A stretch of 64,000 nucleotides of DNA from Candidatus Bathyarchaeota archaeon (GTDB lineage Archaea; Thermoproteota; Bathyarchaeia; Bathyarchaeales; Bathycorpusculaceae), in assembly GCA_963720565.1 (NCBI GenBank), contig CAVRFW010000009.1, positions 224,001 to 288,000 of the forward strand. The letters are read 5' to 3'. Shown piece after piece: positions 52,036-59,551 of the stretch. The position numbers and the translations under genes were made by a program. Each line of letters opens with the position of its first letter. The first letter of the stretch is position 1. The notes beneath the pieces were generated by a model, which was not told the origin of the DNA, did not search any database, and was given only the letters and a program-made list of their open reading frames with translations.

Positions 52036-52755
52036 CTATTGAGGTAATCTCCATATTGTTAGCAGCATTTTTGCCTTCCGAGCTGCGATAATAATCATGT
52101 TTATGGCAAAAACTATTAGCATTAAAAGTATGCCCAGTGCAATTGCCAAGTCTAGGTCTCCTCGTGCTGTGTAACGGGATATGGCTGTTGTGAGAACGTC
52201 GGTTAAGCCTGCAATGTTGCCACCGACGAGCAGAGCCACGCCCAATTCCGCTATAGCTCGGTTGAAGCTGGCTATGTTGGATAAGAGGACTCCGTTTATC
52301 GCTTCCTTTAAGACTGCTATTGAGGCTTGTGATTCTGAAGCGCCTAAGGTTTTGGCCAGCTTCATTATTTCGGGGTCAACAGCTTCGATGGCTGTTGTCA
52401 TAATGCTGACGAGGATGGGAGTCACGAGTATGGCTTCGCCTAGAATTATTGCGCCTGGCGTGTAGAGTAGTCCTAGAAATCCTAATGGGCCTCCTCTGGA
52501 GAATATTAGGAATAGAAATAGGCCCAAAACCACGGTGGGTATGCCTATCAACGTGTTAAACAATCCTTTAACTATGCTTTTGCCTCGGAAGTCTCTTAGT
52601 CCGAGCAGCATGGCTGTTGGGGTTCCCCAGAGCGTTGCTAGGATGACTGCGATACCTGAAAAAAAGAGGGTGCGGGAGACGATTCCATATAGCATGGGAT
52701 CGCCTGTGGCTATCAGCTGGAAAGCTTCTATTATGCCACCGAGTACGTCGACCAA
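52036..52755 (-). CDS. tupB: Tungstate ABC transporter permease
   Basis: F.GK, P.VV.GL, SR.GPLG, A.TLGAS, R.I.E.G....VGGNI, LTTAI. Confidence 0.9.
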   Translation of the reverse strand: MVDVLGGIIEAFQLIATGDPMLYGIVSRTLFFSGIAVILATLWGTPTAMLLGLRDFRGKSIVKGLFNTLIGIPTVVLGLFLFLIFSRGGPLGFLGLLYTPGAIILGEAILVTPILVSIMTTAIEAVDPEIMKLAKTLGASESQASIAVLKEAINGVLLSNIASFNRAIAELGVALLVGGNIAGLTDVLTTAISRYTARGDLDLAIALGILLMLIVFAINMIIIAARKAKMLLTIWRLPQ

Positions 52756-52767
52756 TGCTGTTTTCCT

Positions 52768-53784
52768 CTAGTGATAGAGGTCTGGGTAGCCGACTTCTGT
52801 ATTGCGTGGGGCATTCTGAGCCTTCTATGAAGGCGGCTTTTTCTATCCAGCCGACGACAGGTTGAGGTGCATCGTCTACGAGTGGTTGTACGGCGGGGAA
52901 GAATAGGCTTTGTCCATAGTCGTCTTTGCCGTAGTCTTCTATGAATTGTTGCGTTTCAGTTGAAACTAGGTAGACTATGAAGTCCATTGCGTCCTCGAAG
53001 TTTATCTTCTCATGGATTGTTTGGTTAGCTGCTACTGTCTGGTTGACTGCCATGGCGCTGTAAACGTTAAGTAGCGATTCAGCTTCGTCTATGAGTGCAA
53101 CCTCGGAGGTTATGCCGTCTTTCTCGTACTTCAGGAACGTTCCAATGTCGGATAAGTGTGTAGGCTAATTTCTCGTTTGCCACGTTGAGCGTGTCACCCA
53201 TGCCTGAGCCTGTAATTCCGAACCATGGTTCAGCAGAGATCAGTGTGTAGTTGTAGCCTGCTGATTTCCAGAGGCTTTGTTCTTTGGTGTGAGTGCCGGA
53301 GTTGTCTCCTCTGGAGATCCAGATTTTGGTTGTGCCTGACTGGTCAGTTAGGTTTCCTCCGTAGTTTGCAATGTTTCTTAGGGCTTCGGTTTGTGGTTTT
53401 TCCTTGGGTGTCTGCGGGGTCATTCTCTGGTCCTACTATGGTGAAGAAGTTGTAGGCTATTATTTTCCTGTTGACTCCCCAGCCTTCCTCGAGGAAAGTT
53501 TTTTCTTGCGATGGGGCGTGAACGAGGATTAGGTCTGCGTCACCGTTTTTCGCGTGCTGTATGGCTATTCCTGTTCCAGCGGATATTATGTTGATGTCTA
53601 CGTTTGGGTTTTTGGCTTCGTAGTCTTTTTCAAGTTCGTCTAGTAGTCCTGTGTCGTAGAGGCTTGTGGTTGTGGATATTATGAGTCTTCTTTTTGAGAG
53701 GTAGTTGAAGTAGACTAGTGTGCCTGCGATTACTATTATGGTTGCGAGTGCTGCGACTATGAGTAGTTTTTGCCAAGTTTGCAT
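52768..53784 (-). pseudogene. tupA: Tungstate-binding protein TupA, three extra bases (~53391, ~53154, ~52795; possibly sequencing errors)
   Basis: STTTS..DTGLL, GTG.A, G.AD...VHAP, SRGDNSGTH.KE, G.GMG.TL, YTLSD.GT, N.YS motifs spread over successive frames. Confidence 0.88.
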
Positions 53785-53858: not shown

Positions 53859-54416
53859 ATGTCCACCTACAAAAAACATAAGCCCTCGGCAAAGATTTGG
53901 ATAGAACACAAAGGAAAGCCGCTGATAGGACAGGGAGGGGCAGAAATCTTGGAGGCCGTCGCAAAGGAAAATTCGTTGTCTGCTGCTGCAAAAACGCTGC
54001 ATATGTCTTACCGTTACTTGTGGAATTACATCCAGAAAATAGAGAAGACGTTGGGCGACCCCGTAGTCGACACGTACAAAGGCGGCAAAGCTGGAGGCGG
54101 TGGCGCGAAGCTCACAGTGCTTGGTCAAAACTTGCTCAGTGAGTACAAGAGAGTTGAGGGCTGTTTAGATAGGTTTCTTTCTGACCCTGATTATTGGGAG
54201 GTGATAGGTTTGAAAACAAGCGCTAGAAACCAGTTGAAGGGAAAAGTTGTTTCAGTCGAGAAAGATGGAATTATGGCGAAAGTGAAAATTGAAATTAATG
54301 TGCCCGCGGTGATCACTTCGGTCATTACTAAGGAAGCCGTTGAGGACTTGGGCATAAAAGTAGGTGATGAAGTCGTGGCTGTCGTGAAGTCAACAGAAGT
54401 GATGATTGCCAAATAG
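53859..54416 (+). CDS. modE: ModE-like molybdate/tungstate-responsive regulator (wHTH + TOBE)
   Basis: IG.G...LE, SLSAAAK.L.MSYR..W, GGKAGGGA.LT, SARNQL.G, VKST; divergent from tupABC. Confidence 0.93.
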   Translation: MSTYKKHKPSAKIWIEHKGKPLIGQGGAEILEAVAKENSLSAAAKTLHMSYRYLWNYIQKIEKTLGDPVVDTYKGGKAGGGGAKLTVLGQNLLSEYKRVEGCLDRFLSDPDYWEVIGLKTSARNQLKGKVVSVEKDGIMAKVKIEINVPAVITSVITKEAVEDLGIKVGDEVVAVVKSTEVMIAK

Positions 54417-54427
54417 TCTTTCTTTTT

Positions 54428-54982
54428 TTATTCTATGACGTAGCGGTAGGTTATGTAGTATTCGCCTGCCGTCTGGCTGTTTCTTTTCACTCTTAGGATG
54501 TCGCCTGGTTTTGCTCCGATGACTTTGACTGCGGGGTCTGTGGATTGTATTTGCGGCATCTGGTATGGCTGCACTTTGTACTTCGTAAGCAGTTCTTCTC
54601 TTTCTTTCTTTGTGAGGATTTCATGTTTGGGCACTAAAGCATGGTCGAAAATGTCGAAGACCGGGAATGATTTGGGCAGGAGCTCCACGTTCTTTTTCTT
54701 GGCGCCTTGCTTAACCGCGTGTGTGTAGCGTCCTTCGGTGACGACGATGGCGCGTTCCAGCTCTTTTTCTTTCATGACTTTGTAGAGCGTATTCATTGCT
54801 GCAATGCCTACTGTCGCTGAGCCAAGGATGCACCAGACCAGGGCTTTTTCTTTGTCTTCTGGAATGTTTATGGTGTAGCCGATTGCGCCTTCAAAAGTTT
54901 CTTTATTGATAAGCTTGTATTTTCTGAGCTTGATGAGGACTTCTGCCTTTCGCTCTTCGATGGTTTCAACTTTACTGCTCAA
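54428..54982 (-). CDS. rpo5: RNA polymerase subunit Rpo5/RpoH with an extra ~105-aa N-terminal domain (RPB5-like)
   Basis: C-terminal H.LVPKH.IL, P.I...DP, GAKPGD...V.R.S.TAG..YR; extra N-terminal alpha/beta domain. Confidence 0.93.
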
Positions 54983-55198
54983 ACCTTAAACCTCATTGAT
55001 AAACAAGTACGCGAAAAACCTAAACAACGCTTTAGCCCTTAAACTTTTCCCTTAACATTTTGATAGCGCACGCTAATCCATCCCTGTAGAACCGAGAACT
55101 CGGTCAACCCCTTTTCCTTTTTCTGAGCGCACACTTTCGAACAAAAGCAGAATCAAGAACTCATGGTACCACTAGGCAGTGCGTGCTAAGTGCGGAAG

Positions 55199-58100
55199 CT
55201 AGCTTTTTTCAGCTTTAACGTATACTTCAGTATTCACTTGTTTTGCGGGGTGACCAAGAAAATCAGATAGATGACCTTTCCAAACAGGATTTGAATTAGC
55301 CGTGAATCCAACGGTTTGTGAAATTCCACGCCACAGCAAAGCTTTGTCGTAGTCTTTAGCATCCTGAGGCATAAATTCGAAAATCGACCGGCTCGCAACA
55401 ATAACCAGCTTCTTTTTCATCCGCGAAATAGCCACGTTGATTCTCTTCAAATCAAGCAGGAAATCGCTCTCGGTACGCACGTAATCAGGATCACTAACCG
55501 TGGAAGAAATAATAATCAAATCAGCTTCTCCGCCCTGAAAACGCTCAACCGTGTCAATCTTCACCTTATCGGAATAATCAGACAGCATATTCTTCAAGAC
55601 ACCCTTCTGCGCATTATGCGGCGTAATCACACCCACGCTGTCTGATTTCACATCGCGGACCAAAGCATCAACAATCGAAGCCTCAACCAGATTCGACTGA
55701 AAACTCTCCGCTTCATCATGAACAACCAAAACCAAAACATTCTCCGGATCAAGAACAACCCTCAAACCTTCTGTCTTAGGATCCGAATCAGCCAAAGTCG
55801 CCTTTTGATCGGAATGAAAATCAATCTTATCCATCTCATAAACCCACTCTTTCAAAAACTCCGCAACAACCATGTGGCAACGGTGACTCTGACACAAACG
55901 CTCCGCCGGAATATCCGCGCCAGCTACACACTTGATCCTCTCAATCCCAAGATCTTCTTTGCGTAGCAAACGCAGAAAATCCATAGCAGACAAGAAGGAC
56001 GCCATCTCTTCCAACGTCCGACGATCTTCCTTCTCCCAATTATGCGCTTGAATCGGAGGTAGCTGACGATGATCTCCCGCCACAAGAATCTGACTGCTTG
56101 CACACAGAAAAGAACCCGAGAGAATCAGCTCAGGCAAACGCATCATGCTCGCCTCATCAACCACAAGCAAATCAAAAAAGCCCTCACCCCAAGGAGGTTC
56201 AGTCCCCCCAATCTTCTTCATAAGACCATACAACCCTGGAGGAGTAACACACAACACCAAAGGAAAACTGCCCGAAACATCCGAAGTTAACGTCGTCTGA
56301 TTCATTAAACTATCCTTTAGTTCCTTAACCGCCTCTTCATCTTCGTTATAATTAACATAGGTAACTCCCTCAAGAGGTCTAACCGAAGAACTATCGTTGC
56401 TCAGAACCCGGTAGACCCTGAGACTAGCAAGGTCCTCGCCGCCCTTAGCGCAGTATTCTCGCCAGGAATCAGAAAGTTTGCTTACAAACTCGTGAATCGC
56501 CTTGTGAGTGGGGGCAACCATCAACACTCTACACCTAGAACTAGCCCTGTGGGCTGCAACATGGGCTAAAACCGCTAACTGCAAAGTCTCAGTCTTCCCC
56601 GTCCCAGGCGGCCCCTGAAGCATCACAACCTGTGCCTGTCCAAAAACGCGTTCGATGAAGCGACTCTGCTCAGGCTTAGGAGGAAAACGTTTGCCCTCAA
56701 CCCACCGCATAAAAGAATCGGCAGCATCCCTCGACAAAACGGTATGCGCAGATTTGTCTGACCTGCCTGCCAAGAAACTCTCCAACAAACAATACAACAC
56801 ATTACTGTCTGCATAATCAAGACATTTTGCAGCCCTATCCGAAATTATATCATCCGCCAACTCATCCAAAATATAGCATCGCCCAGCCTCAAAAAGCTGG
56901 AGATACCTGCTCTTAGCCTTCTCAGGATCAGAAGTCGGAAGATTATGCCAAGCACTATACTTGCGACCCTTGCCACTTGGCCAACTCACCACCTTCACAG
57001 TCAACTCTAGCTTTCGCACATCAATCTTGTCAACAATAACGCGGGCTGACTTCTCAATCTCAGAAGGCGAACGCTTCTGAACTTCCTCAAACTGTCCCTG
57101 CTCGTTGCGCCGCACCTCAGTCGCAACCATCCAATCACCCGAACTCGAACCGTCAGACCCCTTAATCCTGCAAGCATTGGCCGCACAATCCGCCTTAGGC
57201 AGACCAATGCCCTCATAAACTAGTTTACCGCGAACCACAAACTCCCGCTCGCTTTCCAATACATCAGTGCACTCGAAAATTAAAGACCGCCCCGAAACAA
57301 CACGCTGATACGGTAACAAAGCATAATGCTGATACAACTCTTGACGTTTTGCAAAATATTCCAGATCCAAAAACTCTCTACAACTTCGTTCTAAAGTTAC
57401 AGGACCCAACGAAAACTCCGTTATCTTCGGAACCGCAATCGGCTTCTTGCCCAACCGCCTATTCCGAATCGACAACGACCGCTCAATGTGCTCAAGAACC
57501 AAACAAAGTTTCGCACCCATAAGCGTGAGCTCTTCATCGCTGATTCGCCTAGTCTTGTGCGGATAATCACACCACATGCGCTTCTCCAGGAAGATTCGAG
57601 CATAACCCTTCTCGTCACGGTTTTCTAGGCGACCCTTAGCTCCCCACACGTACTCAATCGGAATTTGATCCCCAAATCGAGCCCGAGCAGGATAATACCC
57701 CTCACTGCGTCTGGATTCATCATATCCAAGAAGAAAAGACATTGAACCGTCGCGATTGTGAACGTAAGGAAGAGAATAACTAAAAAAACCATCGCGAAAA
57801 ACCGAATGCAAATCCACTGTTGATCCGTCTCGGCGCCTAACAATCCACTGATTACGGTCAAAAAGACCGGATTGCTCCAGAACAGGCAAAAGCCCCGAAC
57901 TGTGAAACCTAAGAGCCTTCCGATGCACAACTTCATCTTGAATAATCGAAAACATCGGCTGATCAATCGCTTCCCTAAGACCCAAAAGATCCCTCACCGC
58001 ATGTGCACTCATCAAAGAGGGTTGCCGACGAACCGCATCCATCAGAACGTCCCGTTCACGCCGAGTAAAGAAATAAAGATGAATCGGCGCCTCATCTGGG

Positions 58101-59551
58101 CTTCCCACCTCATTGGCTATCTTTGTCACTGCATTATTAACCTCTTGGAAAAAAGCTTCCAGCAGCTTCCTCTCTTCCTCCAATCCTTCTTCGTGCTCAT
58201 CTGGAAGACTCCCGATTATTCGAGAAACACTCAAAGACTCTCCATGGTAACGAGTGCAACTCACTCTGGCGCTGACCATGGAAATAATATCCAACATGTA
58301 GTCCCATTCAACATAAAGATAAACTCGGATCATGCCGTCAGGCCTAAACGAAAGCGCTGAATTCTCCCCCGGTGACGGGCTATCCTCGGGAAGACTGCCA
58401 AACCCGGTGCCAGTTAGCCACGGCATCCACCTGCCCTTCATCGCAAAAGAACTATTGGGCCGAATTCCTCCCAACATGAACTGAGCCCGCTCAACCAACC
58501 AATCAAGCTTGGAACCCACAACAGGATCAGCAGCCAACAGACTGACTCTGTCAAAATCCACAGCAGGTAGACCCTTGAAATCATACGGCCGCAAGCTACC
58601 CGCATCTGGAACAACCTTCAATCTTCCTAGATCCTCAAGACGTTCAACTCCATGATTCCGAAGCGCATTCTGCTCTCCCCTGCTCAAATTAAGCAGCGAA
58701 ATGCTTTCGCTCTCAATAGCGGTAACTATACAGCACTCATTGAAACCGCAATTGTCACAACGCCAGCAAAGCTGATACTCTACTTCGGATAAAGGGCTCT
58801 GATGGATACGCTGTAGCTCGCCGTTTTTTCCGAGAAGCCGCTCAACATCCTGAACCAAGGGGTTGAGCTTAAACTGCGGAAGAACGCTTGGATCAAGATT
58901 CTCCAAATCCGTCTCCTTATTTATCACTCCACCTTCAAACTCAACCTTCGTAGCAAGGCTTCCCAACCCCTGAGAAAGAAGCAACATGTAAATTGCCACC
59001 TGAATACGATGCGCTGTCTGCTCCTTCCAAGAGGCTTTTAATTCAAAGATCCTTACCTTCACTTTGCCCGCCTTGAAAGGCCAAACGGCAATCAAGTCGG
59101 CAATCCCGACAATATCCCAAACACCGATATGCCCTTTCATAGGCACCTGATAGAGTAAAACAGGCTTACAATCAACATTCTCTACTGCAGAAATCTGATT
59201 CTTGATAGTCTCCTGCAAAACATGCAAAGAGTCTTCCCAAGCTTTTTGCCAACCCACAACTCGAGGATTATAGGCACTGAAATCAACATAACTGGCAGCC
59301 TTCTCTTTCAGCTCACTAACCTTTTTTTCCTCAAGCATTTTTCCCGCGCCATAAAGCAGAGGGCTAATCGGCTTAAACGCCTCAATCCACCTGCGTCTTC
59401 TTTCCTCATGACCCTCATACTTCAGCTTGAAAAAACGCGGACAACAATTGAAGCGAATATACTCCGCTATTCCCGAGGCAGATAATGCGGGCAAACCGTC
59501 AGACCGCATTCCTTCATCCGACAACTCTTCAAAGAAGTCATTTGTACCCAA
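55199..59551 (-). CDS. Large PD-(D/E)XK (RecB/Cas4-like) nuclease - superfamily 1 (Dna2/Upf1-like) helicase fusion
   Basis: SAS...CCPR, G.ADL, ELKAS, Q...Y, C..C..C.....C; helicase motifs QGPPGTGKT, DEAS, GDHRQLPPI, ITPHNAQ, TVERFQG.E, NVAISR. Confidence 0.88.
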   Translation of the reverse strand: MGTNDFFEELSDEGMRSDGLPALSASGIAEYIRFNCCPRFFKLKYEGHEERRRRWIEAFKPISPLLYGAGKMLEEKKVSELKEKAASYVDFSAYNPRVVGWQKAWEDSLHVLQETIKNQISAVENVDCKPVLLYQVPMKGHIGVWDIVGIADLIAVWPFKAGKVKVRIFELKASWKEQTAHRIQVAIYMLLLSQGLGSLATKVEFEGGVINKETDLENLDPSVLPQFKLNPLVQDVERLLGKNGELQRIHQSPLSEVEYQLCWRCDNCGFNECCIVTAIESESISLLNLSRGEQNALRNHGVERLEDLGRLKVVPDAGSLRPYDFKGLPAVDFDRVSLLAADPVVGSKLDWLVERAQFMLGGIRPNSSFAMKGRWMPWLTGTGFGSLPEDSPSPGENSALSFRPDGMIRVYLYVEWDYMLDIISMVSARVSCTRYHGESLSVSRIIGSLPDEHEEGLEEERKLLEAFFQEVNNAVTKIANEVGSPDEAPIHLYFFTRRERDVLMDAVRRQPSLMSAHAVRDLLGLREAIDQPMFSIIQDEVVHRKALRFHSSGLLPVLEQSGLFDRNQWIVRRRDGSTVDLHSVFRDGFFSYSLPYVHNRDGSMSFLLGYDESRRSEGYYPARARFGDQIPIEYVWGAKGRLENRDEKGYARIFLEKRMWCDYPHKTRRISDEELTLMGAKLCLVLEHIERSLSIRNRRLGKKPIAVPKITEFSLGPVTLERSCREFLDLEYFAKRQELYQHYALLPYQRVVSGRSLIFECTDVLESEREFVVRGKLVYEGIGLPKADCAANACRIKGSDGSSSGDWMVATEVRRNEQGQFEEVQKRSPSEIEKSARVIVDKIDVRKLELTVKVVSWPSGKGRKYSAWHNLPTSDPEKAKSRYLQLFEAGRCYILDELADDIISDRAAKCLDYADSNVLYCLLESFLAGRSDKSAHTVLSRDAADSFMRWVEGKRFPPKPEQSRFIERVFGQAQVVMLQGPPGTGKTETLQLAVLAHVAAHRASSRCRVLMVAPTHKAIHEFVSKLSDSWREYCAKGGEDLASLRVYRVLSNDSSSVRPLEGVTYVNYNEDEEAVKELKDSLMNQTTLTSDVSGSFPLVLCVTPPGLYGLMKKIGGTEPPWGEGFFDLLVVDEASMMRLPELILSGSFLCASSQILVAGDHRQLPPIQAHNWEKEDRRTLEEMASFLSAMDFLRLLRKEDLGIERIKCVAGADIPAERLCQSHRCHMVVAEFLKEWVYEMDKIDFHSDQKATLADSDPKTEGLRVVLDPENVLVLVVHDEAESFQSNLVEASIVDALVRDVKSDSVGVITPHNAQKGVLKNMLSDYSDKVKIDTVERFQGGEADLIIISSTVSDPDYVRTESDFLLDLKRINVAISRMKKKLVIVASRSIFEFMPQDAKDYDKALLWRGISQTVGFTANSNPVWKGHLSDFLGHPAKQVNTEVYVKAEKS

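Follow-up and report, generated by a model that had tools for sequence, protein, structure and literature searches.

The sole Rpo5 subunit detected in this Bathyarchaeia genome is very probably a two-domain homolog of eukaryotic RPB5: its C-terminal domain would attach it to Rpo1, and its N-terminal domain, of nuclease fold, likely forms a lower jaw facing downstream DNA. An earlier note on the same DNA, a window of 64,000 nucleotides, had described a 184-aa ORF with an RpoH/Rpo5 domain behind an N-terminal extension and had placed it in a non-Asgard archaeon; profile matches, selection on the extension, and the Bathyarchaeia host bear out that description. The N-terminal module of RPB5 is held to be eukaryote-specific in papers that treat it (PMC2675907, PMC1802627, PMC2847245, PMC3906176, PMC3424549). 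No description of an archaeal Rpo5 with two domains came up in a literature search of mainly open-access text, and an earlier mention is possible. The terms Rpb5 and Rpo5 have no match in the supplements of PMC10307638 (Eme 2023), in PMC13734099, or in the main texts of 10.1101/2020.10.19.343400 (Liu 2020) and 10.1101/2024.07.03.601958 (a structure-based Asgard preprint). Asgard and Bathyarchaeia Rpo5 are modeled in PMC13257274, the examined parts of which do not mention a jaw. Review passages do not bear out a jaw in Korarchaeota, a group without identifiable members among the sampled genomes.

The long rpo5 gene and its coding sequence

Table 1 Features of the long rpo5 locus, numbered from the first letter of the window.
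Feature	Position	Strand	Basis
Long rpo5/rpoH gene, two-domain RPB5-like subunit, 184 aa	54428..54982	minus	TTG start; ORF, profile matches, homologs
N-terminal domain, residues about 5-104	54671..54970	minus	Mrr_cat match, hhalign, N-only PDB profile, model, Mrr alignment
Arg20 codon	54923..54925	minus	Aligned to Arg of RPB5 DRGY motif (yeast R26)
C-terminal Rpb5/RpoH assembly domain, residues 109-182	54437..54658	minus	Pfam PF01191, E 1.4e-29; PDB RpoH chains, E 4e-25
Shine-Dalgarno-like GAGGT, 7 nt 5' of TTG	54990..54994	minus	By eye
Candidate BRE and TATA-like element, possible own promoter	55038..55050	minus	By eye against the archaeal promoter consensus

The C-terminal domain is a typical assembly domain, scoring 102 bits against a cut-off of 23.5 for Pfam RNA_pol_Rpb5_C and 101 bits against a cut-off of 83 for NCBIfam PRK09570 (RpoH). 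Homologs of the full-length protein number 1356 among 1402 candidates, and the 120 homologs listed share 77-99% identity with it over 97-100% of the query. The protein carries an extra Tyr near its C-terminus (54452-54463), giving 184 aa against 183 in most relatives, which may be a real variant or an assembly slip. Upstream of the start codon, the candidate BRE/TATA-like element was picked out by eye at a distance of ~60 nt; a sigma-70 scan of the region does not cover archaeal promoters.

The N-terminal part is genuine coding sequence under purifying selection. Across 24 of the 95 other long Bathyarchaeia loci, chosen for an N-part more than 70% identical, pN of the N-part is 0.07-0.17 versus a pS of 0.53-0.95, and in most of these 24 rows the identity of the N-part (70-86%) is at least as high as that of the C-part (68-79%). 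An internal start is not conserved, since an in-frame ATG just before the C-domain occurs at only 10 of 96 long Bathyarchaeia loci. The earlier note had allowed for translation from such a start, yielding the short form only; selection on the N-part and the lack of a conserved ATG rule this out. RNA libraries matched only in small shares of words. Contigs of relatives from four runs span the N-domain region, two of them bridging the domain junction, but they cannot show transcription or a start site and are hence not counted.

As the earlier note had observed, the gene stands alone outside the rpoB operon and converges on a modE-like gene (53859-54416). At 33 of 70 long loci of the Bathyarchaeia type, but at none of seven Asgard loci, a modE-like gene stands in convergent orientation no more than 4 kb away. 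We dropped the idea of a functional link between rpo5 and modE and take the convergent neighbors as synteny only. Directly upstream of rpo5, on the same strand, lies a gene for a 1450-aa protein (55199-59551) that joins a PD-(D/E)xK nuclease at its N-terminus to a superfamily 1 helicase at its C-terminus and shows no sign of a tie to rpo5.

The N-terminal domain is related in sequence to the RPB5 jaw

Residues 37-102 exceed the cut-off of Pfam Mrr_cat (E 4.9e-7), and the N-part is also matched by Pfam NA-iREase1. Pfam RNA_pol_Rpb5_N (PF03871) has no match in the 184-aa protein, nor in the whole genome in a search run without a positive control. None of 33 archaeal-type long forms scanned reaches the PF03871 cut-off, five of the 33 scoring below it with E 0.003-0.04. 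The PF03871 model covers a eukaryotic insert that is absent from the archaeal forms and that appears as an 18-residue gap, after helix 1, in the alignment of the two kinds of N-domain.

Direct comparison of profiles recovers the relationship. HMM-HMM alignment by hhalign of archaeal with eukaryote-type N-domains gives 98.5% probability, E 2.6e-15 over 86 columns, and 97.5% with other rows. A profile built from the N-domain only (A5) and run against 177,635 PDB sequences places eukaryotic RPB5 at all of ranks 1 to 11 (E 3.8e-6 to 0.11), and among the matches listed no restriction enzyme does better than E 3.9; this test is free of the query-selection bias of the eukaryote-type rows described below. 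The single N-domain sequence finds one PDB match, an RPB5, at E 0.46. In the reverse direction, a profile of eukaryote-type N-domains ranks the long rpo5 ORF best of 24,733 frames in the genome (E 4.5e-7). On the same profile, each of the 12 fused archaeal domains tested receives 15-29 bits, and all 47 free ORFs stay below 12 bits. This free-Mrr control missed 2 of its 61 target ORFs, and two of the 47 free ORFs (L237 and L278) are probably in the wrong frame. The 18 eukaryote-type rows were picked by similarity to the long Rpo5 query, which biases these scores upward and biases the trees below as well. A single profile captures both the Bathyarchaeia and the Asgard N-domains, at 28-113 bits.

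Arg20, at the end of helix 1, is present in 160 of 162 long forms and aligns with the DRGY arginine of RPB5; in yeast RPB5, the R26E mutation at the corresponding position is lethal (PMC1802627). A K/R-G-Y at this position also occurs in some free Mrr proteins, so the motif is not exclusive to RPB5, and one intact Mrr nuclease reaches 39.5 bits on the archaeal N profile, equal to the best eukaryote-type domains. Because of these two observations, the archaeal N-domain is, by its sequence, intermediate between nucleases and the RPB5 N-domain. The profile comparisons nevertheless make it highly probable that the extension is homologous to the RPB5 jaw, as the earlier note had supposed by eye. 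Of the two profile similarities it had named, the one to Mrr-like endonucleases holds for the Pfam model, and that to eukaryote-type N-domains holds for our own HMM-HMM comparison but not at the Pfam Rpb5_N cut-off.

Other proteins carry related domains. The ESM Atlas contains clusters combining Rpb5_C with Mrr from Bathyarchaeota and giant viruses, none of them decisive. Five compact RPB5-like proteins of 173-191 aa (P0174, P0176, P0237, P0247, P0267) pass Pfam Rpb5_N and, like the archaeal long form, lack the eukaryotic insert; for clusters similar to them, the ESM Atlas gives giant viruses as the source.

Structure models and catalytic residues

The predicted model of the whole chain (pLDDT 86.6) folds like RPB5. 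Foldseek returns RPB5 or its homologs at ranks 1 to 34 with TM up to 0.77, and comparison with RPB5 in VIA gives Z 15.2 and an rmsd of 3.4 over 172 of 184 residues, in line with the structural superposition that the earlier note had called for. For the N-terminal part taken by itself this likeness is not specific. The N-only model (pLDDT 93) adopts an Mrr-like PD-(D/E)xK fold with Z of 10.1 to AF1548, 9.4 to NucS, and 8.9 to RPB5, and in Foldseek EndoMS comes first and RPB5 takes ranks 2 to 4. Specificity for RPB5 therefore rests on sequence, because the fold of the N-domain alone ties with other nucleases.

Alignment to four intact Mrr proteins places Gly35 in the column of the catalytic Asp and W50-C51-I52 in the (E/Q)xK columns. 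An (E/Q/D)xK-like motif occurs at the aligned columns in just 1 of 162 long N-domains, and the first catalytic Asp is kept at the aligned column in 27 of 66 Asgard rows. The N-domain of the 184-aa protein is a predicted PD-(D/E)xK fold that lacks the catalytic residues.

A single rpo5 gene away from rpoB

The genome, which is 88.8% complete, contains one Rpb5_C match, the long rpo5. rpoB lies on another contig (C6), in an operon rpoB-rpoA-L30e-nusA; the region before it is assembled and holds no rpo5, nor is there one upstream of a second rpoB on contig C13. Of 29 genomes from the same family, 28 show one Rpb5_C match each, and the N-domain is present in all of them. In a set of 29 long-form genomes, none carries rpo5 at the rpoB locus. 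No genome has been shown to combine a long and a short rpo5, with four multi-match Bathyarchaeia (G073, G113, G158, G161) left aside.

The second rpoB (L007:9862-13234 in genome G000) stands alone, convergent with a CDC48-like gene; it shares 83-87% identity with the operon copy and has a frameshift near codon 345. None of 23 relatives having an rpoB match carries two copies, and the second rpoB is probably a decayed duplicate or binning contamination. The operon rpoA (L006:2938-6772) is divided into 539 + 729 aa at a point that does not clearly correspond to the normal A'/A'' boundary, and further genes in the assembly are broken, for example a tupA-like gene at 52568-53784 of the window; this pattern suggests assembly frameshifts.

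Distribution of the long and short forms

The survey covered Bathyarchaeia, Asgard archaea, other Thermoproteota, and Halobacteriota-type genomes. Rpb5_C is found in 195 of 201 Bathyarchaeia genomes, and the N profile matches at E 1e-9 or better in 120; in two of these (G052 and G074), which are short-form genomes, the match comes from a different fusion, leaving the long form in 118 of 201. Its presence is nearly all-or-none by family and extends to all 56 genomes of the source genome's own order. Among the 125 Asgard genomes with a match, 86 have a frame of at least 170 aa, 35 are short, and 4 are cut; the N-domain was confirmed in 66 Asgard ORFs, and genomes recorded under Heimdall-, Hod-, Hermod-, Thor-, and Jordarchaeal names are among those with the long form. 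The long form is thus the majority state in both the Bathyarchaeia and the Asgard samples. A full-length RPB5-like protein in this archaeon, which the earlier note had proposed, is present and is not peculiar to this genome. No frame of at least 170 aa occurs in 122 genomes of other Thermoproteota classes, and 61 Halobacteriota-type genomes lack the long form, their lone 204-aa frame being a short form. Long open frames in G457, G394, G448, and G494 were set aside as short forms before rpoB with no N-domain.

Gene position separates the two forms. Directly after the gene, rpoB follows none of 155 long rpo5 genes (92 Bathyarchaeia, 63 Asgard) versus 54 of 56 short ones, including 14 of 14 in Asgard; the count draws on 218 rpo5 ORFs in 215 loci, requires 500 bp or more of downstream sequence for a long gene (a further 7 stand at contig ends), reaches a few genomes twice, and includes kin that are not independent.

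Several variants of the arrangement were seen. Nine of 125 Asgard genomes have tandem pairs of long rpo5 genes ~640 bp apart, three of which were verified (L145, L194, L195); the members of such a pair are Rpo5 paralogs in a single archaeal genome. Some Asgard Rpo5 frames of 439-475 aa have two or three tandem N-domains (L174, L175, L176), and others of 279-364 aa have long tails past the C-domain (L177-L181). In several Bathyarchaeia, an Rpo5-type N-domain (49-73 bits) is joined to a Cys-rich C-terminal domain instead of Rpb5_C (L060:6019-6606; L285-L290, L293, L294), two of these loci being in short-form genomes. Because it is also fused to this unrelated domain, the Rpo5-type N-domain appears able to move. 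The best non-self match of the archaeal N profile (E 1.3e-4) is a stand-alone, 119-aa dead Mrr-like protein (L225:3397-3756) encoded between genes that look TtuA-like and adenylate-kinase-like by eye. It has 1810 homologs, mostly labeled 'hypothetical', with Asgard counterparts at L229, L234, L247, and L252, and is possibly a free sister of the jaw domain.

Phylogeny and gene history

The C-domain tree, which is poorly resolved (90 of 236 rows after dereplication, 78 columns), contains five changes between long and short. Uniting all short forms in one clade costs 8 log units (p 0.375) and uniting all Asgard rows costs 50 (p 0.069), neither of which is rejected, and the eukaryotes fall beside a long Bathyarchaeia row (98/90). 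The tree built from both domains (59 of 180 rows) is unrooted and compatible with both transfer and vertical descent; it gathers the Bathyarchaeia into one group with a single Asgard row (94/89) and attaches the eukaryotes among Asgard rows, with a grouping of eukaryotes and Bathyarchaeia not rejected (p 0.21). Neither of these two trees singles out the origin or the donor of long Rpo5. An RpoB tree of 64 rows was built by a quick method, its short rows coming solely from loci where rpoB is the neighbor. In it, the Bathyarchaeia with the long form branch within short-form lineages, with two changes, one change not being excluded, and long and short alternate among Asgard, with eight changes overall. 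The long Rpo5 of one Asgard genome (L132 in G255) groups with a Bathyarchaeia row (97/88), its RpoB is of the Asgard type, and that RpoB (L305) is part of an open frame of 2162 aa; possible explanations are transfer, misbinning, and an rpoB-rpoA fusion or intein.

We infer two gene lineages, an ancestral short gene in the operon and an ectopic full-length gene that displaced it, because it is unlikely that the domain was lost repeatedly and the gene each time went back into the operon. For the Bathyarchaeia, we favor gain of the long form by transfer from an Asgard-type donor with displacement of the operon copy, to which we give an even chance. Inheritance of both forms followed by repeated loss is possible though less probable, and a separate fusion is unlikely. 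This history is the weakest step of the explanation.

Alternative explanations

The most serious rival holds that Bathyarchaeia, Asgard archaea, and eukaryotes each joined a disabled Mrr-type domain to Rpo5 independently, so that the likeness to the RPB5 N-domain reflects superfamily ancestry; the earlier note had itself raised a grouping with Mrr nucleases as such a fusion. The tie between RPB5, AF1548, and NucS in the N-only fold search fits this reading, as do the score of the intact Mrr nuclease on the archaeal N profile, the free dead Mrr-like proteins and the second fusion of the same domain in these genomes, and the eight changes on the RpoB tree. It is nonetheless made improbable by the eukaryote-type N profile, which separates fused from free domains without overlap, by the rank of RPB5 in the PDB search with the N-only profile, by the agreement of domain order and spacing together with the extent of the predicted chain that aligns, and by the range of Bathyarchaeia and Asgard N-domains captured on one profile.

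The long gene might instead encode a second, alternative Rpo5 for a variant polymerase, as the earlier note had suggested, with the short subunit in the unassembled part of the genome. Incomplete assembly, the frameshifted second rpoB, and the nine Asgard genomes with two tandem rpo5 copies lend this some room. It is very improbable given that the region before the operon rpoB is assembled, that the same-family genomes repeat the single match and the N-domain, that long and short forms have been shown together in no genome, both members of the tandem Asgard pairs being long, and that the second rpoB is missing from the 23 relatives with an rpoB match. Slimmer still is the chance that the N-domain is an active nuclease or defense sensor tethered to the polymerase and not a structural jaw. 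The Mrr_cat and NA-iREase1 matches and the first catalytic Asp in many Asgard forms would agree with catalysis; set against them are the substitutions at the Asp and (E/Q)xK columns here, the near absence of an (E/Q/D)xK-like motif among long N-domains, and a single copy with strong conservation, which fit a housekeeping gene.

A proposed archaeal origin of the jaw

Our preferred reading is a polymerase with one two-domain Rpo5. By homology, its C-domain would bind Rpo1 as RpoH does, and its N-domain would sit at the lower jaw facing downstream DNA, as in eukaryotic polymerases, where RPB5 touches the DNA about 15 nt ahead of the bubble (PMC1802627). The lower jaw is the location of Rpo13 in Sulfolobales (PMC2675907), and the archaeal jaw may occupy the same groove, next to the clamp head, as Rpo13. 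The long subunit would be built into the one RNA polymerase, replacing the short operon-encoded form, and a disabled Mrr-type domain would have been fused to Rpo5 once in archaea and then inherited by eukaryotes. We consider it fairly probable that the RPB5 jaw is an archaeal invention in this full sense: a disabled Mrr domain joined once to an ectopic rpo5, which took the place of the short operon gene in most Asgard archaea and in some Bathyarchaeia, gave these archaea a eukaryote-type lower jaw, and passed to eukaryotes, the long and short forms of Rpo5 being mutually exclusive and interchangeable. That the jaw part of the eukaryotic transcription machinery arose in archaea is likely.

If the jaw is present in most Asgard archaea and much of the Bathyarchaeia, one of the last structural differences between the archaeal polymerase and Pol II is gone, and long Rpo5 would be a eukaryotic signature within the core transcription machine. 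A route from nuclease to dead domain to polymerase jaw would then be visible, because many Asgard copies retain one catalytic Asp. Close relatives that differ in having the jaw would allow a direct comparison for open-complex formation, elongation, and passage through histone-bound DNA. Rpo5 calls for caution as a marker gene, given possible hidden paralogy or transfer.

Comparison with known systems

Eukaryotic RPB5/RPABC1 (PF03871 + PF01191; PDB 1dzf, 8uhd_E, 7eu0_E) has the same two-domain order and shares with long Rpo5 an inactive PD-(D/E)xK N-domain, the helix-1 Arg, a VG motif, and the C-domain. Long Rpo5 differs in its archaeal host, in being ~25-30 aa shorter, in the missing insert of ~18 residues after helix 1, in falling below the PF03871 cut-off, and in serving a single polymerase, whereas RPB5 is common to Pol I, II, and III and to plant Pol IV/V. 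Compared with archaeal Rpo5/RpoH (PRK09570; PDB 4qiw_H, 2pmz_H), its C-domain is 43-58% identical with an rmsd of 1.4-1.8, and both are single-copy. A canonical RpoH is one domain of ~75-85 aa encoded just before rpoB; the present protein has 105 additional N-terminal residues, and its gene lies outside the rpoH-rpoB-rpoA operon.

Mrr-type and related nucleases (PF04471; AF1548, 1y88; NucS/EndoMS, 2vld/5gkj; LlaBIII, 4xqk) have the same N-domain fold (Z 8.5-10.1), but the catalytic Asp and (E/Q)xK are absent from long Rpo5, in which the domain is fused to an RNA polymerase subunit. In Sulfolobales, according to PMC2675907, Rpo13 sits where the RPB5 jaw partly lies in eukaryotes, and it may hence be a functional analog; the same paper describes it as a separate helix-turn-helix subunit, a difference from long Rpo5 with no homology implied.
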